The notes beneath the pieces are model-generated. The model had not been told where the DNA came from, made no database searches, and saw only the letters and a list, made by a program, of their open reading frames with translations. Shown here one piece after another: positions 16,447-52,939 of a DNA stretch of 64,000 nucleotides (position 1 is its first letter; the number at the start of each line of letters is the position of its first letter). Source of the DNA: Dehalococcoidia bacterium. GTDB taxonomy: Bacteria; Chloroflexota; Dehalococcoidia; Lucifugimonadales; UBA1127. The stretch spans positions 386,126-450,125 of the forward strand of contig OZ244559.1 in assembly GCA_965217675.1 (NCBI GenBank), written 5' to 3'. Made by a program: the position numbers and the translations under genes.

Positions 16447-17355
16447 GTGGCAGCCACGTTGAAGGAGGTCGCTACGGGAGCGCGGAGCCTGGCGAGAATT
16501 GTGCCGGTGGTGTCGTATCCGGCGGTGCTGGGGACTGGCTTCGCGGTGTATGCGTCGCTCCTGTGGCTTGGGTGGGCGGTGACGCTGGCGTCGTACGCGG
16601 CGGTGTTGACGGGCGCGGCGCTGGTGACGCTGCACGAGTCCCTGCTGCCCTACCGGCGCGAGTGGCGGCCGACTGCCGGCGTTGTGACGGCGGATGCGGT
16701 GTTCATGGGCACCGTGCAGGGCGTGTTGCCGCTGCTGCTCTCGTTCACGGTCGTCATCGGGCTGACGGGTCTGCTCGACACGACAGGCCTGGCGGTCGAC
16801 GGGCTGTGGCCGGCCGGCATCCCGCTGGCGGCACAGGTCGGCCTCATGCTGCTGGCGGCGGACTTCCCGAGATACTGGCTGCATCGGGCGTTTCACGGCG
16901 TTCCGACGATGTGGCGGCTGCATGCCGTGCATCACTCGCCGCACCAGCTCTACTGGCTGAACGTGGGGCGCTTCCATCCGATAGAGAAGTCGATCCAGTA
17001 CGCGGTGGACTCGCTGCCCTTCGCGCTGCTGGGGGCGCCGCAGGAGACGCTGGCGGCGTACTTCGTCTTCTACGCCATCAACGGGTTCTTCCAACACTCC
17101 AACTGCCTGGTGCGCCTCGGGCCGCTCAACTACGTGGTCAGTGGGCCGGAGCTGCACCGCTGGCACCACTCGGAGCTGTCGGAGGAGTCCAACAACAACT
17201 ACGGGAACAACCTCATCGTGTGGGACGTGCTGTTCGGCACGCGGTGGCTGCCAAAGGGGCGCGAGGTTGGCCCGCTGGGGTTGCGCAACCGCGCATACCC
17301 ATTGGGCTTTCTCGCGCAGATGCGGACGCCCTTTGTGAAGGGGCTGGAGCAATGA
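16447..17355 (+). CDS. Fatty acid hydroxylase / sterol desaturase family membrane protein
   Basis: Three His boxes (HRAFH, HAVHH, HRWHH) and 4 TM helices. Confidence 0.85.
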   Translation: MAATLKEVATGARSLARIVPVVSYPAVLGTGFAVYASLLWLGWAVTLASYAAVLTGAALVTLHESLLPYRREWRPTAGVVTADAVFMGTVQGVLPLLLSFTVVIGLTGLLDTTGLAVDGLWPAGIPLAAQVGLMLLAADFPRYWLHRAFHGVPTMWRLHAVHHSPHQLYWLNVGRFHPIEKSIQYAVDSLPFALLGAPQETLAAYFVFYAINGFFQHSNCLVRLGPLNYVVSGPELHRWHHSELSEESNNNYGNNLIVWDVLFGTRWLPKGREVGPLGLRNRAYPLGFLAQMRTPFVKGLEQ

Positions 17356-18986
17356 GCGGCTTGGGATACAGAGCGTTCAAGGCTGCGCTGGAGCTGACGC
17401 AAGGACGTCGCTACCGAGGCATGATGATGGCCGCGCGCGATCCCCGAGCCGCGCAGGAAGCAGTGTTGGCGCGCATTCTGACGGCCAATGCGGAGACGGA
17501 GTTCGGGCGTGAGCATGGGTTCTCGCGGATTGCGGGCATGCGCGAGTACCGTCGGGCTGTGCCGGTGCACACGTACGAGGACCTGCGGGACGCCATCGAG
17601 CGGCAGGAGTTGACGGGCGATCGGTGCCTCACAAAGGAGCCGCCCGTGTACTACCACCGGACGAGCGGGACCGTGGGCGCGCCGAAGAACATACCGGTGA
17701 CGGCAAGTGGTCTGGCGCAGATGAAGCGGGACCAGCGGCTTTCGGCCTACGTGTGGGCGCGGCACTCGGGCGTCATGGAAAGCAAGGTCGTTGGGATTGG
17801 CGGCGCGGCGGTCGAGGGGTGGATGCCCGGAGGGACGCCGTACGGCTCGGCGTCCGGGGTGCTGTACCGCAGCCAATCGCGATTCGTGCGGTCGCGGTAC
17901 GTGCTGCCGCCGGAGGTGTCGGAGATCGAGGACTACGACGCTCGGTACCTCACGATGGCGGTCTACGGACTGTCCGAGCGCGGCGTGACGGGCATCGCCA
18001 CGGCGAACCCGTCGACGTTCCTGCGGCTGCTGGGGGTAGTGCATGACAACGCCGGCGCCGTCCTGGACGCCATCGCGACGGGGCGGCTGCCGGACGCGTC
18101 CGGGGGGCTCTCGCTGACGGCGCGGCCAGAGCGCGCAAGGGAGGTGTCGCGGCGGTTGGAGGCAGCGGGGCGGCTGACGTACGCGGACATCTGGCCCGAC
18201 CTGCGGGGCATCGTCACGTGGACGGGGGGCAGTTGCGGCATCGCGCTGGGCAACCTCGCGCCGCTGCTGCCGGAGGGCGTGCGCATCATCGAGTGGGGGT
18301 ACTCGTCGAGCGAGTTTCGTGGGACGCTCAACGTGGACATTCGCCGGAACGCGTGCCTGCCCACATTTCTGAATACGGTCTTCGAGTTTGTCGAGCGGGA
18401 GGAGTGGGAGGCCGACGGCGGCGAGTTCCTCGGCCTGGATGAGCTGGAAGAGGGTCGCGAGTATTACGTATTCGTGACGACGTGGGATGGCCTGTACCGC
18501 TACGACATCAACGACATCGTGCGGGTCAACGGTTGGGTGGAGGCGACGCCCACGCTGGCGTTTGTGCAGAAGGGAAAGGGCGTAACGAACATCACGGGCG
18601 AGAAGGTGACGGAATCGCAGGTGCTGGAGGCGGTGACGTCGGTCTTTACGGCCTCCGGTACGACGCCGCAGTTCTTCATCATGCTGGCCGATGAGGAGGC
18701 CGCGGGCTACAGGCTGTACGTGGAGACCGGCTCGGCGACGAACGACGGCGCGGTGGCCGCCGACATCGACCGGCGGCTGAGCGCGCTGAACATCGAGTAC
18801 GAGAGCAAACGGCAGAGCGGGCGACTGGCGATGCTGGGCGTGCGTCTGCTCCCACCCGGCTCCGGCGACCTCTACCGCGAAAGCTGCGTCGCTTCCGGGC
18901 AGCGGGACGCGCAGTTCAAATACCTGCACCTGCAGTACGCGCGGGACTGTTCGTTCGACTTCGACGCAATCCCGGGTGTGGTGTAA
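17352..18986 (+). CDS. GH3 family adenylate-forming acyl-acid amido synthetase-like protein
   Basis: QEAVLARILTANAETEFGREHGF...VPVHTYEDL...YYHRTSGTVGAPKNIPVT is the N-terminal GH3 (PF03321-type) signature. ATGA overlap with the hydroxylase stop. The 865-aa ORF 16389..18986 is an upstream extension of this gene's frame running over the hydroxylase gene. Confidence 0.85.
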   Translation: MSGLGYRAFKAALELTQGRRYRGMMMAARDPRAAQEAVLARILTANAETEFGREHGFSRIAGMREYRRAVPVHTYEDLRDAIERQELTGDRCLTKEPPVYYHRTSGTVGAPKNIPVTASGLAQMKRDQRLSAYVWARHSGVMESKVVGIGGAAVEGWMPGGTPYGSASGVLYRSQSRFVRSRYVLPPEVSEIEDYDARYLTMAVYGLSERGVTGIATANPSTFLRLLGVVHDNAGAVLDAIATGRLPDASGGLSLTARPERAREVSRRLEAAGRLTYADIWPDLRGIVTWTGGSCGIALGNLAPLLPEGVRIIEWGYSSSEFRGTLNVDIRRNACLPTFLNTVFEFVEREEWEADGGEFLGLDELEEGREYYVFVTTWDGLYRYDINDIVRVNGWVEATPTLAFVQKGKGVTNITGEKVTESQVLEAVTSVFTASGTTPQFFIMLADEEAAGYRLYVETGSATNDGAVAADIDRRLSALNIEYESKRQSGRLAMLGVRLLPPGSGDLYRESCVASGQRDAQFKYLHLQYARDCSFDFDAIPGVV

Positions 18987-25203: not shown

Positions 25204-26043
25204 ATGACGGAGCAAGAGTCTACATTTCCTACAGGTGAACGGGAGACGCGTCGAGGACGTGGGCCAACGAGGCCGTTCCCGGTCACACCACTCTCTCATG
25301 CAATGCGTTTGCCTAGTAGCATTATGGAACACGGTGTTGATGGCAGAATTGTGAGGCTAACCCTTTTGGCAAAGTTAGATCAGACAGGTGAGTACAATCT
25401 AACGCGAGACGTAATGACTAGTTCATTCAAGTATGGATTGACTATTGGAAGCTACGCATCCTCAACCCTTGAAATAACGGATCAAGGTCGAGAGGTGTTA
25501 ACTCTTGGCAACTTTTCAAGCCAAGCAAAGGAGAAGTTGTTTGAAATTGCAATAGGCCGAATTGATCCGTTTAACAAGGTCTATCTGAAACTGAGGGGTA
25601 GGCCGCTACCTGACGCAGATGTACTCAAGGATGAATTTAGTGCCCTAGGTATATCGGGAACGGACGGCCAGAAAGCTGCCGACGTCTTTGTTGACAACAT
25701 AAGGTACCTAGGAATGGTCGTGCAGATTAAAGGACGGGATCACGTTAGCACAATCGAGTCTGTACTTGAGCAATTACCTTCGGTTGAGGAAGTCACGGTT
25801 GACGTGGAAGACGACGTTCCCGAGTACGACAACGCCGAGGAGACGACGGTTGTTGAGCCACCCGCGCGAGAAACTGCCAATTCTACGCGCTCCGTAGTGG
25901 GAGTAGCCCGCCCAAGTGGTCCATCCAATGAACCTAGTGTCCACATAAATATTCAGATTCACATCGACCCTAGTTCAACTCCAGATCAAGTTGACCAGAT
26001 CTTTTCAAGCATGGCCCGTCACCTCTATGGACGCGAAGGTTAA
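25204..26043 (+). CDS. Hypothetical protein (279 aa) in the low-GC island
   Basis: AAGGAG RBS upstream of ATG 25204. About 45% GC. N-terminal basic RRGRGPTRPFP segment, two ~70-aa helical-looking modules, an acidic linker and a conserved-looking tail HINIQIHIDPSSTPDQVDQIFSSMARHLYG. No family recognised with confidence. Confidence 0.6.
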   Translation: MTEQESTFPTGERETRRGRGPTRPFPVTPLSHAMRLPSSIMEHGVDGRIVRLTLLAKLDQTGEYNLTRDVMTSSFKYGLTIGSYASSTLEITDQGREVLTLGNFSSQAKEKLFEIAIGRIDPFNKVYLKLRGRPLPDADVLKDEFSALGISGTDGQKAADVFVDNIRYLGMVVQIKGRDHVSTIESVLEQLPSVEEVTVDVEDDVPEYDNAEETTVVEPPARETANSTRSVVGVARPSGPSNEPSVHINIQIHIDPSSTPDQVDQIFSSMARHLYGREG

Positions 26044-26050
26044 TTGACCC

Positions 26051-26599
26051 TTGAATAGCTTAGGAAGTAGTAGGGATTGGCTTGCAATCGCCCAAGACCT
26101 GCAAAGTGAAGTGGATCAATTGGGCATGGGTAGGCCAAGCCTGACTTCAGACAAAGTGGACTTGCATGTACAGACTCTAATGAACCAGTTTGATGAAAGA
26201 GTAAATAATCCGAAACTGTATTCTGCTACTCGAAAGTTGTTTGAGGATGGTCACTATCCCCAGGCCGTAGAGGCTGCATTCAAGAGGCTCAACAATGAGG
26301 TAAAGAAGAGGTCGGGTCTTAGCGAGTTGACGGGTGAAAGCTTGATGCGAAAAGCATTTAGTGCAAGTAATCCAAGACTTCGCCTTAATTCCCTTCGTAC
26401 AATCTCGGATAAAGATGAACAACGCGGATATATGGATCTCTATGCAGGTGCGATGTCTGCCATAAGGAACCCGAGGTCACATGAGCACGACCTAGAAGAC
26501 GACCCTCAAGTAGCGCTGGAACTATTAACTGTCGCAAATCACCTGATGAACAAACTTGAAGCAAGTCAAAGGACGAGGCAACGCAAGACGAAATCATAA
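26051..26599 (+). CDS. TIGR02391 (Hypoth_Ymh)-family protein
   Basis: HYPQAVEAAFKRLNNEVKKRSGL...TGESLMRKAF......EQRGYMDLYAGAMSAIRNPRSHE...DPQVALELLTVANHLMNKL matches my memory of the TIGR02391/PF09509 consensus. It starts 8 nt after the upstream gene. The start is TTG 26051 or ATG 26126. Confidence 0.7.
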   Translation: MNSLGSSRDWLAIAQDLQSEVDQLGMGRPSLTSDKVDLHVQTLMNQFDERVNNPKLYSATRKLFEDGHYPQAVEAAFKRLNNEVKKRSGLSELTGESLMRKAFSASNPRLRLNSLRTISDKDEQRGYMDLYAGAMSAIRNPRSHEHDLEDDPQVALELLTVANHLMNKLEASQRTRQRKTKS

Positions 26600-27406: not shown

Positions 27407-27615
27407 GCGGGTCGGCGGGTGCGACTATCGAATCGACATAAGGCCAACTCACGAGCGAATCCCCTCGCGGCGTCAAGACCGCGACTAAAAGCAATGGACG
27501 AGGGGCGCGGAGGGCGGTAGAATCGCGCTGTCCCGGCCGCCTCGCCGGACGATGCGGGGCATCGGCATGGGAATCGCGCTCCGGCATCGGAGCATGGAGG
27601 ACAAAGGAGGGACGC

Positions 27616-28413
27616 ATGACACAGGTATTCAACGCGTACGCGGTTGGCGCCGCCAAGGGCATCGAGGAGCACGTGGCGTTTCTCGAGCCCACGCCCAAGC
27701 GCATCCGGGGGATGTTCGCCGGCGAGACGATTGTCGACTCGAGAAACGCGGTCATCATGTACGAGACGCGGCACCAGCCCGTCTACTACTTCCCACTCAC
27801 CGACGTGCGGATGGATCTGCTGAAGGAGACGGCCCACGACACCCACTGACCGATCAAGGGAGACGCTCAGTACTGGAGCGTCAAGGTTGGCGAGCGCGAA
27901 GTGGAGAACGCCGTGTGGGCGTACCCCGACCCGCTGCCGGACTGCGTGGACGCGCGCGACTACGTGGCCTTTTATTGGAACAAGATGGACAGCTGGTTCG
28001 AGGAGGACGAAGAGGTCTTCGTCGGGCCGAAGGACCCGTACACGCGGGTGGACTGCCTGGCGAGCTCTCGGCACGTCCGCGTCGAGGTGAACGGCGTGAC
28101 CGTTGCGGAGACGACCCGGTCCGTGATGATGCTGGAGACGGGGCTGCCGCACCGCTACTACATCCCCCGCGAAGACGTGAACGAGGACGTGCTGCGACCC
28201 AGCGAGCGCGTGGCGGGTTCGCCGTACAAGGGGGAGGCGAGCTTCTACCACGTCGAGGCGAGCGGCGAGGTGCTCGAGAACATCGCGTGGTCGTACGCCG
28301 AGCCGTGGGCGGAGTCGAGCAAGGTGGCGGGCTACATCTGCTTCCCGCAGGGCAAGGCCGACACCTACGTGGACGGCGAGCTGGAGCCGAAGCCGAAGAG
28401 CCGCTGGGACTAG
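27616..28413 (+). CDS. Tandem DUF427-domain protein read through one in-frame TGA (27847-27849): candidate selenocysteine codon or recent nonsense mutation
   Basis: ORFs 27616..27849 and 27901..28413 share a frame, and TGA is the only stop between them. The motif continues across it: DTH-[TGA]-PIKGDAQYWSV...NAVWAYPDP, compared with the second domain GSPYKGEASFYHV...NIAWSYAEP. AAAGGAGG RBS before ATG 27616. Confidence 0.6.
27862..27882 (+). promoter_or_regulatory. Hairpin 12 nt downstream of the in-frame TGA (SECIS-like candidate)
   Basis: Perfect 7-bp stem GACGCTC/GAGCGTC with loop AGTACTG. Confidence 0.35.
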
Positions 28414-34840: not shown

Positions 34841-36511
34841 CTACCGGGCGGGCGCCGGCTGGCGGTCCGCAGCCCACGGCTTGCGGGTGAAGCGGCGGCC
34901 GAGGCCGCGCTCGATCTCACGCCACTTGGTCTCTTCTTCCGCGGTGATGAACGTGATGGCCTCGCCCGCGCGGCCCATGCGGCCTGTGCGTCCGACGCGG
35001 TGAGTGAAGAGCAGCTCGGAGTCCGGCAGGTCGTAGTTGATGACCTGGCCGATACCGTCAAAGTCCAAGCCCCTGGCAGCCACGTTTGTCGCCACCAAGA
35101 TCGGCGTGGCGCCGGTACGGAAGTCGATCATGACTCGCTCGCGGGCGTTCTGGCTGAGGTTGCCCTGGAGCGCGCCCACGGGGTAGCCCATCGAATCGAG
35201 TTGCTGCGCCAGCTTCTTGACGCCGTGCTTGGTCTTGCCAAAGACAATGACCGGGGCATCGTCGCGCCGGTCGAGCAATGTTCGCAGCGCATTAATCTTT
35301 TCGCTCTTCTGGATGGAATAGACAAGGTGCTCCACGGAGGGCGGGGCTTGCAGGCCCGCGTCGACTTCCACCCTCGCCGGCTGACGCAGGTGCTTGGCGG
35401 CGGTCTGGGCGACCCACGCGGGCATCGTCGCCGAGAGGAGCGCCGTCTGCCGGTCCTTGGGCGTTCCGGCCATGATGGCCTCGACGTCGTGGGCGAAGCC
35501 CCTGTCGAGCATCTCGTCGGCTTCGTCCAGCACGAAGAACCGCACTGCGCTCAGGTCAAGGGTCTCTTGCCGCAGGTGGTCGAGCGTCCGGCCCGGCGTG
35601 CCGATCACGACTTGGGCGCCCTTTCGCAGCGCGATGTACTCCGGCCCCAGTGAACGTCCGCCGTAGAGGAGCGTCACGCGCAGCCCATGTGCGGCGGCCA
35701 GGGCCTCGACGACGCCGGCCACCTGGATGGCTAGCTCGCGGGTGGGCACCAGCACGAGCGCTTGAACGCCCCGGACCGAGGCGTCGCAGCGCTCCGCGAT
35801 AGGGGCTGCGAAGGCCAGCGTCTTTCCCGACCCGGTGCGCGCCTGACCAATCAGGTCACGCCCGGCCATGAGGTGTGGTATGGCCTTCTCCTGGATGGGA
35901 GTTGGCTCAGAAATGTTCATTTTGGCAATGGCCACCCTGGTGGCCGGCATCAGGGGAATCCCGGGAAACACGTGACTGGCGGCATCGGCCGCGACGGGAT
36001 CAACTGCTCTCGCGGGCTCCGGGCGAGCCGGGCGCGGGCTTGGCCTCTGGGACGTGTTGGGGCGAACTGCCCCGTTCACGTTGTTCCGTGAAGGCGTGGT
36101 GTGGTTGGGGCGAACTGCGCCGTTCACATTCGGGCGCGACGTCATGGTGTGGTTGGGGCGAACCGCCCCGTTCGCGTTGGGGCGCGACGTCATGGCGTGG
36201 TTGGGGCGAACCGCCCCGTTCGCGTTCGGGCGCGACTGCATGGTGTGGTTGGGGCGAACAGCGCCGTTCACGTTGCTTCGCGATGTCATGGTGTGGTCGG
36301 GTCGAACTTTGCCGTTCACATTGCCGCGGTCCGGCGTGTTCTGTTGGCGTGCTCGGAAGCATGTTTGGCAGTATACGGGCTTGCCTTGGGTGGGCCGGAA
36401 TGGGAGGGTGGTGGACATGCCGCATTGACTGCAGTTGGCCTGGTGTTGGGTACGATTGGTCTGATTACGGTTGCTGGGACGTGCGAGGATGGATGTAAAC
36501 GTGGATGACAT
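34841..36511 (-). CDS. DEAD-box RNA helicase with N-terminal CxxC..CxxC zinc ribbon and a 6x16-aa repeat linker
   Basis: Q-motif/motif I region GQARTGSGKT, DEAD (VLDEADEM), SAT and HRVGRTGRMG motifs. N-terminal CSQCGMSTTLPFRPTQGKPVYCQTCF. Confidence 0.9.
   Translation of the reverse strand: MSSTFTSILARPSNRNQTNRTQHQANCSQCGMSTTLPFRPTQGKPVYCQTCFRARQQNTPDRGNVNGKVRPDHTMTSRSNVNGAVRPNHTMQSRPNANGAVRPNHAMTSRPNANGAVRPNHTMTSRPNVNGAVRPNHTTPSRNNVNGAVRPNTSQRPSPRPARPEPARAVDPVAADAASHVFPGIPLMPATRVAIAKMNISEPTPIQEKAIPHLMAGRDLIGQARTGSGKTLAFAAPIAERCDASVRGVQALVLVPTRELAIQVAGVVEALAAAHGLRVTLLYGGRSLGPEYIALRKGAQVVIGTPGRTLDHLRQETLDLSAVRFFVLDEADEMLDRGFAHDVEAIMAGTPKDRQTALLSATMPAWVAQTAAKHLRQPARVEVDAGLQAPPSVEHLVYSIQKSEKINALRTLLDRRDDAPVIVFGKTKHGVKKLAQQLDSMGYPVGALQGNLSQNARERVMIDFRTGATPILVATNVAARGLDFDGIGQVINYDLPDSELLFTHRVGRTGRMGRAGEAITFITAEEETKWREIERGLGRRFTRKPWAADRQPAPAR
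36035..36322 (-). repeat. In-frame 48-bp tandem repeat x6 inside the helicase gene
   Basis: Units begin (minus strand) at 36322, 36274, 36226, 36178, 36130 and 36082. They encode NVNGAVRPNHTMTSRP variants. Confidence 0.85.
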
Positions 36512-36992: not shown

Positions 36993-38810
36993 TTGATTGA
37001 AAGCCGGAACAACGGCATTCGCAACCTGGCCATCATAGCGCACGTCGACCATGGCAAGACCACACTGGTAGACGCGCTGCTGAAGCAGGGTCAGGTCTTT
37101 CGTGCGCATCAGCAGGTGGGTGCGCTGATCATGGACACCAACCCGTTGGAGCGGGAGCGCGGCATCACGATCCTGGCCAAGAATGCCTCGGTCTCCTACG
37201 GCGGCGTCCGCATCAACATCATCGACACACCGGGCCACGCCGATTTCAGCGGCGAGGTCGAACGCGTCATGAACATGGCCGACGGCTGCCTGCTGCTGGT
37301 GGACGCCGTGGACGGCCCCATGCCCCAGACCACCTACGTGCTGCGCCAGGCCCTCCAGCAGAACGTCACGCCGATGGTCGTCATCAACAAGATCGACCGC
37401 CCCGAAGCCCGCGTGGCTGAGGTCGAAAAGCTGGTGCAGGACCTGTTCCTGGAGTTGGCCACCCGGGACGACCATCTGGACTTTCCCGTGCTGTACACCT
37501 CTGCGCGCCAGGGGTATGCCATTACGGACTGGGAGGCGCCGGGGGCGGACATGAAGCCGCTGTTCGAGGCCATTCTGCGGTCGGTGCCGCCGCCGACGGG
37601 CGACCCCAACGCCCCGCTGCAGATGCTGGTGGCGGCACTGGACTACGACAACTACGTTGGCCAGGTGTCCATAGGCCGGATTTCCAACGGCACGCTTCGG
37701 CCTCGGGATGAGGTGGTCCTGCTGGGCCACGACGGCGTCGCCACGACGCATCCCGTGGAGTTTGTCTTCGTCTTCCACGGCATGGAGCGCGTCGAGGTTG
37801 CCGAGGCCTACGCCGGGGACATCGTCGCCGTGACCGGTCCGGAAGGCGTGTCAATCGGCGACACCCTTGCGTCGCGGGAGAACCCGCAGGCCCTGCCGAC
37901 AATCGACATCAATGAACCCACGGTGCGCATGACGTTCGGCGTGAGCACCTCGCCGTTCATGGGACATGATGGTGTCCACTGCTCCTCGCGCACGCTGCAC
38001 GAGCGGCTCATGCGTGAATTGCGGACCAACGTCAGCCTTCGCGTGGATGACACGCCCAACGTCGGCGAGTTTGTCGTCGCCGGCCGGGGCGAGCTGCATC
38101 TGTCCATTCTGGTGGAGACCATGCGCCGAGAGGGCTGGGAGTTCCAGGTCTCGCGTCCCACGCCCGTCAACAAGGAGATAGACGGCAAGGTCTACGAGCC
38201 CTACGAGATCCTGAACATCAGCACACAGGAAGAGTACGTTGGGACGCTGACCGAGTACCTTTCCGCCCACATGGCCCAGCTCCGGGACATGCGGTACGAC
38301 GAGAACGGTCTCGTGCACATGGAGTTCAAGATCCCCACCCGCGGGCTCATCGGCTTCAACGCCTACTTCCTTCGGACGACTCGCGGCGACGGAGTGAAGA
38401 ACAGCGCCTTCACCTCCTACGAGCCGTTGGAAGGCGAGATACGCTCCTACCGAGGCGGCGTGCTGGTGGCGTCGGAGGCGGGTACGGCGGTGACCTATGG
38501 ACTGCTCAACGCCCAGGGCAGGGGCGACACGTTCATCGACCCGGGCGCCAAGGTCTACGAGGGGATGATCATCGGCTCCCAACGCCGCGGGGGCGACATT
38601 CCGATCAACGTCTGCAAGGAAAAGAAACAGACCAACATACGGTCGTCGACGGCCGACATTGCCAAGCGCCTCAACGCAACAGTGCGGATGAGCCTTGAGG
38701 AGGCGCTGGCGTTTATCGACGACGACGAACTGCTTGAGGTAACGCCCCTGAACCTGCGACTCCGCAAGGCGGAACTGTCCGCGCAAAGCAGCAAGCGGAC
38801 AAAGCACTAG
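36993..38810 (+). CDS. typA: Translational GTPase TypA/BipA
   Basis: [31 protein letters not shown], and overall EF-G-like length (605 aa). TTG start with a GAGGTGA RBS. Confidence 0.95.
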
Positions 38811-48431: not shown

Positions 48432-50270
48432 ATGAGGGCAATTCCGGTCGGTGTGAAGCCGATTGTGCTTGTTACGATGGTGATGGTGCTTGCGTTTGCT
48501 GTCGCCTGCGGCGGGAGCAGCAGCGATACCTCGACCACTGCGACAACGACCACCACCACCACGACGCAGACCCAACAGCAGCCCGCGGCCCCAGCGGCAG
48601 CTCCGACGGCCGCGGGCATCTTTGCCGCGCCGGCTCAGCCATCTGCGGCTGCGATGCCGATAGGCGAGCTTCCCACCGCTCCTTCCACAGGTCCGGTGCA
48701 AGCAAAGATCGAGCGCGTGGTCTTCGCCCTGAAGGCGCCGTCCACCGAGCACAACACCCCGGGCAAGAGTGGCCCGACCACCAACGTTCAAAACAACCCG
48801 ATGTACGAGTATCTCATCGGCATGGACCCGGTCTCAGGCTTATGGGTGCCTGAGTTGGCTACCGAGTGGAGCATCGAGCCCGACAACGCCTCCATCCGAT
48901 TCAAGCTTCGGAAGGGCGTCCCCTTCCACAAGGGATGGGGCGAGATGACCGGCAAGGACGTCAGGCACACCTGGCAGGACATCTCCGCCGACGATGCTAG
49001 CCACGGTAACAGCGGTCCCCTTCGCAGTAACGTCGAGGACGTGGAGATCGTCAACGACTACGAGGTGATTTTCCGGTCGCCTGCCCCCAACGCCGGCCTC
49101 CTCTGGATCCTGACCCGCCAGGAGCAGAGCCTCCTGGTGCAGAGCAAGGACCACTATGATGAGGTGGGCGTGCCGGACCTCACCAAGCCCGCCATCGTTG
49201 GCACCGGCGTCTACCAGGAAGTGGAGCGGCGCCAGGGCTCCTACGCCCGGTACGAGCGCCCGCCCTACACGCACTGGAAGATGACCCCGGACTTCCAGGA
49301 GTTGGAGATCCGCTTCGTCCCGGAGGCCTCCACCCGCCTCGCCAGCCTGTTGGCCGAAGAGGTCCACGTGACGGAGCTCCCGGACGACCTCAAGCCGCAG
49401 GCAGAGAGCGGCGGCATGGCCCTTTCCCCGGGCAACGCCGCTGGCCTGCGCTCCTTCATGGGCCTGCGCTACGGCGCTCGCTGCCCGTGCAGCAGCGACA
49501 CCCGAACAACCATCCCGGCCCTGGACGCGGCCTACAAGTACCCCGACGCCCCCATGCACGACATCCGCGTCCGGCGGGCCCTCAACCAGGCCATCGACCG
49601 CAACGCCATCAACGAGGCCTTCTTTGGCGGTAAGGGCGACTTGATGGTGCGCAACCACCACCACCCCACGCGCCCCGGCTGGGACCCTACTTGGGAGACG
49701 CGGTTTGAGGAGCACTACGGCTATGATCCGGTGAAGGCCAGGCAGCTCTTGGCCGAGGCCGGGTACGGCCCGGACAACCCCTTTGAGCTCAACGTTCACT
49801 TGCGCGAGTCCTTTGCCTATCCCGGCGCTCCCGACGTTGCTGAGGGCATTGCCGGTTTCTGGCGCGACGTCGGCATCAAGACAGTCTACAACAGCGAGGA
49901 CACCGCCACCTACCGGGCGCGGGGCCGCAACTTTGAATACAGCAATGACGCCATCATCAGCGGCACGAGCTCTCACATCCTGATGGGCACGCGAGTGTAC
50001 GACATTGCCGCCAACCCCAGGACCGGCGCCCCGGAGATCCCGAAGCGGGACGAGATTTACTACGAGATTGCCAGGACCTTGGATTCCGACAAGCAGAACG
50101 AGCTCTTCCGCCAGTTGGGTGAGATCTCGTTCCTCGGCTACTACGACATCCCGCTGTTCTGGCTGGCGCCGGAGGCCGCCTACAACCCCAAGTACGTCAG
50201 CGGCTACGCCTACCCCGGCTCCGTGTCGGGCACGTGGACCCACATGGAGTTCATCCGCGCCGCCCAGTAG
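48432..50270 (+). CDS. ABC transporter substrate-binding lipoprotein, family 5 (copy 1)
   Basis: Lipobox LAFAVACGGS, a Thr-rich linker, 612 aa. AGGAGGGAG RBS. Confidence 0.9.
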   Translation: MRAIPVGVKPIVLVTMVMVLAFAVACGGSSSDTSTTATTTTTTTTQTQQQPAAPAAAPTAAGIFAAPAQPSAAAMPIGELPTAPSTGPVQAKIERVVFALKAPSTEHNTPGKSGPTTNVQNNPMYEYLIGMDPVSGLWVPELATEWSIEPDNASIRFKLRKGVPFHKGWGEMTGKDVRHTWQDISADDASHGNSGPLRSNVEDVEIVNDYEVIFRSPAPNAGLLWILTRQEQSLLVQSKDHYDEVGVPDLTKPAIVGTGVYQEVERRQGSYARYERPPYTHWKMTPDFQELEIRFVPEASTRLASLLAEEVHVTELPDDLKPQAESGGMALSPGNAAGLRSFMGLRYGARCPCSSDTRTTIPALDAAYKYPDAPMHDIRVRRALNQAIDRNAINEAFFGGKGDLMVRNHHHPTRPGWDPTWETRFEEHYGYDPVKARQLLAEAGYGPDNPFELNVHLRESFAYPGAPDVAEGIAGFWRDVGIKTVYNSEDTATYRARGRNFEYSNDAIISGTSSHILMGTRVYDIAANPRTGAPEIPKRDEIYYEIARTLDSDKQNELFRQLGEISFLGYYDIPLFWLAPEAAYNPKYVSGYAYPGSVSGTWTHMEFIRAAQ

Positions 50271-51100: not shown

Positions 51101-52939
51101 ATGAGGGCAATTCCGGCCGGTGTAAAGCCGATCGTGCTTGTAACGATGGTGATGGTGCTTGCGTTTGCGGTCGCCTGCGGCGGGAGCGGCAGCGAAACCT
51201 CGACCACTGCGACAACGACCACCACCACCACGACGCAGACCCAACAGCAGCCCGCGGCCCCGGCGGCAGCTCCGACGGCCGCGGGCATCTTTGCCGCGCC
51301 GGCGCAGCCCTCCGCGGCTGCGATGCCGTTAGGCGAGCTTCCCACCGCTCCTTCCACGGCTGCGGTGCAGGCAAAGATCGAGCGTGTGGTCTTCGCCATG
51401 AAGGCGCAATCTACGGAGCACAATACCCCGGGCAAGAGTGGCCCGCCCAACAACGTTCAAAACAACCCCATGTATGAATACCTCATCGGCATGGACCCGG
51501 TCTCCGGCGCATGGGTGCCTGAGTTGGCTACCGAGTGGAGCATCGAGCCCGACAACGCGTCCATCCGCTTCAAGCTTCGGAAGGGCGTCCCCTTCCACAA
51601 GGGGTGGGGCGAGATGACAGGCAAGGATGTCCGCCACACCTGGCAGGACATAACGGCGCAGGACGCTGCCCACGGCAACAGCGGAAACCTCCGCCGTGAC
51701 GTCGAGGACGTGGAGATCGTCAACGACTACGAAGTTATCTTCCGTTCTCCCTCCCCCAACGCGGGTCTTCTGTGGATCCTGACGCGGCAGGAGCAGAGTA
51801 TCCTAGTGCAGAGCAAGGACCACTATGATGAGGTGGGCGTGCCGGACCTCACCAAGCCCGCCATCGTTGGCACCGGCGTCTACCAGGAAGTGGAGCGGCG
51901 CCAGGGTTCCTACGCCCGCTACGAGCTCCCGCCCTACACGCACTGGAAGATGACCCCGGACTTCCAGGAGTTGGAGATCCGCTTCGTACCGGAGGCCTCC
52001 ACCCGCCTCGCCAGCCTGCTGGCCGAAGAGGTCCACGTGACGGAGCTCCCGGATGACCTTAAGCCGCAAGCGGAGAGCGCGGGCATGGGCCTTGCCGCGG
52101 GCAACGCCGCCGGTCTGCGTTCCTTCATGGGCCTGCGCTACGGCGCCCGCTGCCCATGCGACACTGACGGCCGCCAAACGATCCCGACTCTTGACGCGCC
52201 CTACAAGTACCCGGACGCCCCCCTCCACGACATTCGTGTCCGCCGGGCCCTCAACCAGGCCATCGACCGCAACGCCATCAACGAGGCCTTCTTTGGCGGC
52301 AAGGGTGACTTGATGGTGCGTAACCACCACCACCCCACCCGCCCCGGCTGGAACCCGAGTTGGGAGACGCGGTTTGAGGAGCACTACGGCTATGACCCGG
52401 TGGAGGCCAGGCAGCTCTTGGCCGAGGCCGGGTACGGCCCGGACAACCCCTTTGAGCTCAACGTTCACTTGCGCGAGTCCTTTGCCTATCCCGGCGCTCC
52501 CGACGTTGCTGAGGGCATTGCCGGTTTCTGGCGCGACGTCGGCATCAAGACAGTCTACAACAGCGAGGACACCGCCACCTACCGGGCGCGGGGCCGCAAC
52601 TTTGAATACAGCAATGACGCCATCATCAGCGGCACGAGCTCTCACATCCTGATGGGCACGCGAGTGTACGACATTGCCGCCAACCCCAGGACCGGCGCCC
52701 CGGAGATCCCGAAGCGGGACGAGATTTACTACGAGATTGCCAGGACCTTGGATTCCGACAAGCAGAACGAGCTCTTCCGCCAGTTGGGTGAGATCTCGTT
52801 CCTCGGCTACTACGACATCCCGCTGTTCTGGCTGGCGCCGGAGGCCGCCTACAACCCCAAGTACGTCAGCGGCTACGCCTACCCCGGCTCCGTGTCGGGC
52901 ACGTGGACCCACATGGAGTTCATCCGCGCCGCCCAGTAG
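51101..52939 (+). CDS. ABC transporter substrate-binding lipoprotein, family 5 (copy 2)
   Basis: 612 aa, collinear with copy 1. Differences are concentrated in the N-terminal 430 aa. The C-terminal ~185 aa are identical. Confidence 0.9.
   Translation: MRAIPAGVKPIVLVTMVMVLAFAVACGGSGSETSTTATTTTTTTTQTQQQPAAPAAAPTAAGIFAAPAQPSAAAMPLGELPTAPSTAAVQAKIERVVFAMKAQSTEHNTPGKSGPPNNVQNNPMYEYLIGMDPVSGAWVPELATEWSIEPDNASIRFKLRKGVPFHKGWGEMTGKDVRHTWQDITAQDAAHGNSGNLRRDVEDVEIVNDYEVIFRSPSPNAGLLWILTRQEQSILVQSKDHYDEVGVPDLTKPAIVGTGVYQEVERRQGSYARYELPPYTHWKMTPDFQELEIRFVPEASTRLASLLAEEVHVTELPDDLKPQAESAGMGLAAGNAAGLRSFMGLRYGARCPCDTDGRQTIPTLDAPYKYPDAPLHDIRVRRALNQAIDRNAINEAFFGGKGDLMVRNHHHPTRPGWNPSWETRFEEHYGYDPVEARQLLAEAGYGPDNPFELNVHLRESFAYPGAPDVAEGIAGFWRDVGIKTVYNSEDTATYRARGRNFEYSNDAIISGTSSHILMGTRVYDIAANPRTGAPEIPKRDEIYYEIARTLDSDKQNELFRQLGEISFLGYYDIPLFWLAPEAAYNPKYVSGYAYPGSVSGTWTHMEFIRAAQ

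Follow-up and report, generated by a model that had tools for sequence, protein, structure and literature searches.

Selenocysteine (Sec) stands nearly always at catalytic redox sites, and the mammalian MsrB1 is one of the selenoproteins. As the closest described system on the RNA side, E. coli fdhF, the gene of formate dehydrogenase H, has an in-frame UGA at the position of a catalytic Cys, and directly after the UGA a stem-loop, the selenocysteine insertion sequence (SECIS), in which a lower stem is followed by an interruption and then by an upper stem, whose 5' side has a bulged U, with a four-base GU-containing apical loop about 20 nt downstream. On the protein side, the domain family DUF427 (PF04248, NTP_transf_9) has had a crystal structure since 2008 and has no known activity. 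Here we examined a stretch of 64,000 nt from a Dehalococcoidia bacterium (contig OZ244559.1, positions 386,126 to 450,125), which as a whole is called the window hereafter. It carries at 27616..28413 on the plus strand a gene with two DUF427 domains in tandem, whose frame is interrupted internally by a TGA only once. A previous sequence-only reading of the window had proposed this gene as a candidate new selenoprotein, and our results support the proposal by the Cys/UGA pair, the conservation of the TGA, a selected hairpin and the Sec machinery in carriers of the gene. Judged from these comparisons, 27616-28413 is almost certainly a single intact selenoprotein gene which uses the known bacterial mechanism.

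As to the gene itself, the frame starts with ATG 27616 and ends with TAG 28411-28413, and the TGA at 27847-27849 is the sole stop inside it. The sequence-only reading had joined two ORFs of the same frame across this codon, and every coordinate it gave is exact. When the TGA is read through, a product of 265 residues is obtained, with the translation ..LKETAHDTH*PIKGDAQYWSVKVGEREVENAVWAYPDP.. across the stop; the UGA is codon 78, and the residues flanking this position are ...AHDTH-U-PIKGDAQYWSVK.... A Shine-Dalgarno sequence GGAGG can be read from the sequence at 27606..27610 (plus strand), 5 nt ahead of the ATG. Further upstream, at 27495..27523 on the same strand, a consensus scan gives a weak sigma-70-like match (TGGACG, a 17 nt spacer and TAGAAT); the scan found 1 such site against 0.2 expected, and the match is a candidate promoter only. 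Two stretches of the read-through protein match the PF04248 profile, with 216.9 bits at a cut-off of 22.1 (E = 2.3e-65). The best Pfam stretch is domain 1 (27706..27978, plus strand), where residues 31-121 are aligned with profile positions 2-92 of 93 and which would bear the Sec. Domain 2 (28087..28347, plus strand, approximately residues 158-244) is given by the second Pfam stretch and by the alignment to PDB 3DJM, which extends over residues 158-244 with E = 1.5e-11. At the site equivalent to codon 78, domain 2 has Ser202 (28219-28221, within GSPYKGEA) in place of Cys, as had been read earlier from the sequence. In other genes UGA is a normal stop, since it closes 7 of the 39 confident ORFs in the window and 31 of the 112 Sec-type DUF427 genes described below.

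The correspondence between the UGA and a conserved Cys can be clearly seen from the homologues. A search of 5.8 billion proteins retrieved thousands of DUF427 proteins, and in the full-length tandem homologues, which are 53-58% identical, the TGA column is occupied by Cys, as in HTTHCPFKGDASYW. At the UGA site the tandem homologues read [HR]-C-P-[FY]-K-G-[DE]-A-x-Y-W, and the core [HR]-C-P-[FY]-K-G is found at this column in P0002, P0009, P0037, P0055, P0095, P0108 and P0118. In a full-length alignment of 32 sequences, the Cys78 of the first domain is conserved to at least 90% and the Cys of the second domain is invariant. In other words, the UGA stands on a near-invariant Cys column of the Cys-type homologues; the claim that the TGA takes the place of the conserved DUF427 Cys, made before in the sequence-only reading, is borne out by the DUF427 alignment, which puts the Cys exactly at the TGA.

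The TGA form is not confined to the window. The four nearest protein matches, with 166-175 residues and 96, 83, 81 and 78% identity, lack the N-terminal part of the query and cover its C-terminal 63-66%, as a gene caller produces when stopping at a TGA, and on record the N-terminal fragments are found as separate products of 69-77 aa and the C-terminal parts with about 166 aa. Five metagenome loci, with called C-terminal products that have 78-96% identity to the query, keep the TGA, each with a 77-aa ORF, then the TGA, then the remainder of the gene. The neighbourhood in the loci L001 and L002 is that of the window, with a xanthine/uracil permease and a DedA/VTT gene upstream and a hydrolase downstream. 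Moreover, one genome per GTDB species was scanned with the pattern TGA-CCN-NNN-AAR-GGN-GAN-GCN-NNN-TAY-TGG, i.e. TGACCNNNNAARGGNGANGCNNNNTAYTGG, and 112 species representatives matched, all with DUF427 ORFs that are open on either side of the TGA; by our own estimate about 4 matches are expected by chance. Altogether 117 other loci were examined and every one retains the TGA; 112 of them are these species representatives, so the near and distant orthologues bearing TGA, and not TGC or TGT, that were to be expected of a selenoprotein do exist. The carriers belong mostly to Dehalococcoidia, several of which bear the label SAR202, and to Acidimicrobiia, with many Candidatus Poriferisodalis among the latter, followed by Nitrospinota; rarer are a few Tectomicrobia, Gemmatimonadetes and proteobacteria, and one Latescibacterota. 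Their pairwise nucleotide identity ranges from 52 to 100%, and the species representative nearest to the window is the chromosome OZ252245.1 of a Dehalococcoidia metagenome-assembled genome (MAG), with 92-95% nucleotide identity. Several of the carrier MAGs have sponge-associated names. Among 677 clustered flanking ORFs no partner gene is conserved across lineages, and the context gives no functional clue.

As a control for the Cys form, a matching scan with TGY in place of TGA gave 120 metagenome loci (L121-L240), all of them DUF427. Both types have the common motif T-x-C-P-x-K-G-[DE]-A-x-Y-W, with Sec predicted in place of its Cys in the Sec type, and in both single-domain and tandem forms occur; among the 112 Sec-type genes 70 are tandem and 42 single-domain. 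The Sec type differs in that Sec would be in domain 1, in that U-P is followed mostly by I or W and not by F or Y, and in that the Cys of the second domain is frequently replaced by Ser. In fact, Ser is found at the second-domain site in 24 of the 70 Sec-type tandem proteins, whereas 31 of the 36 Cys-type tandem proteins have Cys there, and it seems that the gain of Sec in domain 1 goes together with the loss of Cys in domain 2. When fragments of 80 residues are placed on a rough neighbour-joining tree, at least six switches between Cys and Sec are needed, with Cys at the root, and this estimate is tentative.

Immediately after the UGA, the minimum free energy (MFE) structure contains a SECIS-like element at 27850..27890 on the plus strand, in which the lower stem pairs 27850-27855 with 27885-27890 and the upper stem pairs 27862-27868 with 27876-27882. 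The upper stem, GACGCTC and GAGCGTC around the loop AGTACTG, is the perfect GC-rich 7-bp hairpin 12 nt past the TGA that the sequence-only reading had noticed; its sequence and coordinates are exact, and its structure is conserved and selected in the orthologues, as shown below. The upper stem can alternatively be drawn with 5 bp, a bulged A at 27877 and 3 bp, with GUAC (27870-27873) at the apex. It has accordingly 7-8 bp, and the loop, AGUACUG or GUAC, begins 19-20 nt past the UGA. By the criterion described for a bacterial SECIS (PMC1088965), the UGA should be followed at once by a stable stem-loop whose small apical loop contains G, and the hairpin of the window has this form. Compared with fdhF, the order of lower stem, interruption, upper stem and four-base GU-containing loop is the same, and the dimensions are also similar: the fdhF loop GGUC lies at +22 to +25 with an MFE of -14.9 kcal/mol over 48 nt, and the GUAC of the window lies at +24 to +27 with -15.8 kcal/mol. 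The two differ in the protein family and in that the best-supported variant in the window bulges an A on the 3' side, not a U on the 5' side.

The variation among orthologues tells more about this element. In 43 distinct tandem orthologues with a mean nucleotide identity of 0.76, the synonymous variation (same-amino-acid pairs with different codons) is 0.107 over codons +4 to +12 after the UGA versus 0.35 gene-wide. These nine codons, which encode G-D-A-Q-Y-W-S-V-K, have the lowest value of the 240 nine-codon windows of the gene, and the ten lowest all overlap or adjoin the region of UGA and hairpin. For instance, the four-fold degenerate Gly codon at the hairpin is invariably GGA, whereas its counterpart in the paralogous motif of the second domain varies (0.64). 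As regards the pairing, the simple 7-bp stem is disrupted by a change from GCU to GCC in 11 of 32 distinct sequences; the bulged fold, with 5 bp, the bulged A, 3 bp and a GUAY tetraloop, pairs in 100% of the cells for all 32. The variable positions of this bulged helix change from U-G to C-G and from A-U to G-U, and there is a double change from C-G to U-A (GAC...GUC to GAU...AUC). In the lower stem, CCGAUC/GGUUGG, 92% is paired and two pairs change on both sides. Such a pattern indicates that the hairpin is under selection at the RNA level, and the significance of the hairpin comes from its conservation and not from its energy.

In other groups of carriers the region after the UGA folds into hairpins of different sequence. 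In Nitrospinota and Tectomicrobia it is GCGUCC-UAYU-GGACGC with the loop starting 21 nt past the UGA, in the PWKGEAR group GGCCAG-GUA-CUGGUC with the loop starting at 20 nt, and in the PFKGDAS group GGACGCC-(9 nt)-GGCGUCC with the loop starting at 18 nt. In Acidimicrobiia, single-sequence folds give GCUACU-GGUC-AGUAGC with the loop about 24 nt past the UGA, and the consensus fold chose another structure. When codons +3 to +14 (36 nt) are folded, 90% of the Sec forms versus 50% of the Cys forms have an MFE of -10 kcal/mol or lower (rank test on MFE, p = 7e-4), and the z-score against synonymous recoding is -1.44 for the Sec forms and -0.44 for the Cys forms (p = 1e-7), with the GC content of this region being 0.60 in the Sec and 0.66 in the Cys forms. 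The codons of A-S-Y-W, which tend to be self-complementary, may have eased a repeated conversion of Cys into Sec.

Evidence of Sec machinery was found in three other carriers, namely L049, L114/L120 and L081. The Dehalococcoidia contig L049 (6.3 kb) encodes a SelA of 456 aa with 44% identity to E. coli SelA at about 1.2 kb from its Sec-DUF427 gene. Another SelA, P0193, is encoded on an ENA/NCBI contig of 2,443,739 bp, and OZ242025.1, the chromosome with locus L114, also has 2,443,739 bp. The carrier locus L081 belongs to FO_M_Nitrospinota_01, which is listed in BSepDB with 54 selenoprotein genes, and two Dehalococcoidia MAGs are in the same top ten (PMC13326102). With ARAGORN, no tRNA-Sec was found in any of the collected loci. 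In the window a translational GTPase of 605 aa (36993-38810, plus strand) was considered as a SelB candidate, being the sole tblastn match to E. coli SelA, SelB and SelD; it matches SelB only in the G domain with 36% identity and is a false lead, and we take it to be a TypA/BipA-like protein.

Several other explanations of the in-frame TGA have to be weighed, and the simplest of them, which the sequence-only reading named itself, is a pseudogene, i.e. a recent mutation of TGC or TGT into TGA next to a chance hairpin, after which the gene is dead or yields a fragment of 77 residues only. For this a single substitution is enough, the energy of the hairpin is unexceptional, and gene callers do annotate fragments of 77 aa and 166 aa. 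The same TGA is found, however, in 112 species-level genomes from several phyla, among which the wide range of pairwise identity excludes a single contaminating sequence, and the synonymous sites over the hairpin are constrained. Moreover the ORF stays open and is conserved as protein on both sides of the TGA: with orthologues of increasing distance, the ratio of nonsynonymous to synonymous substitution rates (dN/dS) is 0.04-0.61 for the 60 codons before the TGA and 0.09-0.45 for the 170 codons after codon +17, and for codons +1 to +17, which lie ahead of any possible restart at ATG or GTG, it is 0-0.22. The variation of these 17 codons in 43 orthologues is largely third-position and synonymous, such as CCA/CCG/CCC for Pro, AUC/AUA/AUU for Ile and AAG/AAA for Lys, and among the five closest orthologues compared the stretch from the TGA to the first possible start differs by synonymous changes alone. 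The conservation, the dN/dS and the synonymous constraint together refute a recent nonsense mutation, which retains hardly any probability. The 17 codons bear equally on the proposal of a split gene, by which an N-terminal polypeptide of 77 aa and a C-terminal one of 166-170 aa are made separately and assemble after translation: GTG 27901 and GTG 27913 are taken as starts by gene callers, but no Shine-Dalgarno sequence of the GGAGG type is seen ahead of these two candidates, and the codons in front of them are conserved as protein. Besides, the break would fall within the most conserved motif, at the junction of strand and turn in the core of the domain, and in every case it coincides with the Cys codon and is a TGA, not a TAA or TAG, a regularity that follows from the design of the scan and is also seen in all the relatives found by protein similarity. 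A split gene is thus very improbable. Because the dN/dS is purifying, including codons +1 to +17, and no GGAGG precedes the GTG candidates, the pseudogene and the split gene may be taken as excluded for practical purposes, and translation appears to continue past the UGA. As for an error of sequencing or assembly at the TGA, nothing specific speaks for it, the identical sequence of TGA plus hairpin occurs in many independent assemblies and the exact 77-aa N-terminal product is also encoded on an NCBI/ENA contig of 2,863,534 bp, and the probability of such an error is negligible.

A further alternative is a programmed read-through of the UGA without Sec, in which Trp, Cys, Arg or Gly is supplied by a near-cognate or a suppressor tRNA and the hairpin stimulates the process. 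The sequence by itself does not identify the inserted residue, and a number of our results weigh against Sec insertion. Neither selA, selB and selD (tblastn with E. coli queries) nor tRNA-Sec (ARAGORN) is present within the 64 kb of the window, which is the part of its own genome covered, and in protein searches and cluster look-ups no SelA match could be assigned to the clade of the window, with an assignment that reflects cluster representatives only. The energy of the hairpin has z = -1.04 against dinucleotide shuffles, with 28 of 200 shuffles folding as well in this DNA of 64% GC, and Rfam has no SECIS-type match in the region, even when the gathering threshold is relaxed to E <= 10. The UAYU loops of Nitrospinota and Tectomicrobia are without G. 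Furthermore the MFE of a 54-nt region does not differ between Sec and Cys forms (p = 0.71), and in the half of the Cys forms that fold to -10 kcal/mol or lower, the codons for Tyr and Trp often lie in a UACU loop. On the other side, the UGA stands in for a conserved Cys, the hallmark of Sec, the carriers that were checked have selA or are known users of Sec, and both the position of the hairpin and its GU loop match the SECIS of fdhF. Taking these points together, a read-through without Sec is improbable, and the UGA at 27847-27849 is very probably decoded as selenocysteine.

If Sec is inserted in this way, the following course of translation may be supposed. When the ribosome arrives at the UGA at 27847-27849, the downstream mRNA would fold into a SECIS-type stem-loop, with the lower stem right after the UGA, an internal loop, an upper stem of 7-8 bp, and the apical G and U at +24 and +25. 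The stem-loop would recruit SelB together with Sec-tRNA(Sec), Sec would be inserted, and translation would go on to the TAG at 28411. The product would be a tandem DUF427 beta-tent protein of 265 residues, with Sec78 in the place of Cys and with Ser202 in domain 2. Here the identity of the inserted residue and the binding of SelB to the hairpin are what we infer from the comparison with known bacterial systems.

The structural position of residue 78 was viewed in the AlphaFold model of the Cys-type homologue P0009, which has equal length and equal numbering at both motifs and a mean pLDDT of 86.6. In this model residue 78 is the end of the strand 69-78, immediately before the P-x-K-G turn. A Foldseek search with the model gave as the sole confident match PDB 3DJM, a DUF427 protein of Rhodobacter sphaeroides (TM 0.9), and the next matches, Mis18/yippee and the RIG-I C-terminal domain, are consistent with the published assignment of DUF427 to the beta-tent fold, in which it is placed together with MsrB (PMC4287342). 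The Sec78 would be solitary, as there is no partner in a CxxU or UxxC arrangement. Since Sec generally replaces a catalytic Cys, a rule which has been restated (PMC13188914), Sec78 is probably a single-selenol catalytic nucleophile, with a presumable role of redox type. With MsrB/SelR, the methionine-R-sulfoxide reductase, DUF427 shares the assignment to the beta-tent fold and the use of a single Cys or Sec in place of a CxxC or UxxC pair. DUF427 differs in that it has no zinc site (PMC4287342) and no detectable sequence similarity to MsrB/SelR; nor is MsrB among the top 50 Foldseek matches of the P0009 model.

Compared with published selenoprotein families, the kinds of evidence available here are the same, that is, a Sec/Cys pair, orthologues with UGA, a SECIS-like hairpin and a host that uses Sec. 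With regard to novelty, a 2026 review tabulates 119 prokaryotic selenoprotein families with domain identifiers (PMC13188914); PF04248 is absent from its text, and the examined part of its Table 1 has no entry for DUF427. BSepDB contains 111 selenoprotein families, DUF427 is not mentioned in the main text of either deep-Sep or the GOS study, and the NCBIfam models give 0 matches to the protein at E <= 1. In a literature search covering neither subscription journals nor database annotation, nothing relevant was found that links DUF427, PF04248 or COG2343 with selenium, and likewise, subscription journals again being outside its scope, nothing relevant on SAR202 with selenoproteins. The earlier suggestion that DUF427 is not among the known selenoprotein families is in line with the text of that review, with NCBIfam and with the main text of deep-Sep. 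We are inclined to think, with some reserve, that Sec-DUF427 is an unrecognised and widespread family, which has been missed even in a genome with 54 selenoproteins, which arose several times from Cys, perhaps because the A-S-Y-W codons are prone to fold into a hairpin at the proper place, and in which Sec marks the catalytic residue of a single-selenol enzyme similar to MsrB1 in its logic. If this is true, the prokaryotic selenoproteome gains a family found in more than 100 species, and the annotation of such genes, now split in the gene calls on record, can be corrected. The Sec position would be the first concrete functional lead for DUF427, as it defines both the residue and the type of chemistry, and the several hairpin solutions to one coding constraint offer material for better models of bacterial SECIS elements.

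Besides the DUF427 gene, some other features of the window can be described. Among the 39 confident ORFs, the stop codons are TAG in 27, TGA in 7 and TAA in 5, and such a bias to TAG is unusual at 64% GC. The terminal stops TAG/TGA/TAA are 65/31/16 in the Sec-type DUF427 genes versus 43/60/10 in the Cys-type genes, and the excess of TAG may reflect the avoidance of UGA stops in lineages rich in selenoproteins. A scan across the window for other genes with an in-frame TGA gave no convincing second candidate; the matches with high GC at third codon positions are antisense to long plus-strand genes.

Upstream of the DUF427 gene, between the permease and the DedA/VTT genes, 25204-26599 contains two ORFs of 279 aa and 182 aa with seemingly lower GC by eye, and it looks like an insertion, the alignment to the syntenic L001 skipping this stretch. 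At 48432-50270 and 51101-52939 there are two ORFs of 612 aa, each of which aligns at about 80% with L001's only SBP_bac_5 solute-binding gene, and this pair is a tandem duplication in the lineage of the window. The ORF of 556 aa on the minus strand at 34841-36511 is the positional counterpart of the DEAD/Helicase_C gene of L002, and its N-terminal third has, after a Cys-rich segment, several tandem copies of a motif of about 16 residues (NVNGAVRPNHTMTSRP-like). In L002 itself, gene calling splits the P-II gene (PF00543) at 17243-17810 into pieces of 105 and 50 aa, which could be due to a frameshift or a stop, or else to a further recoding site.

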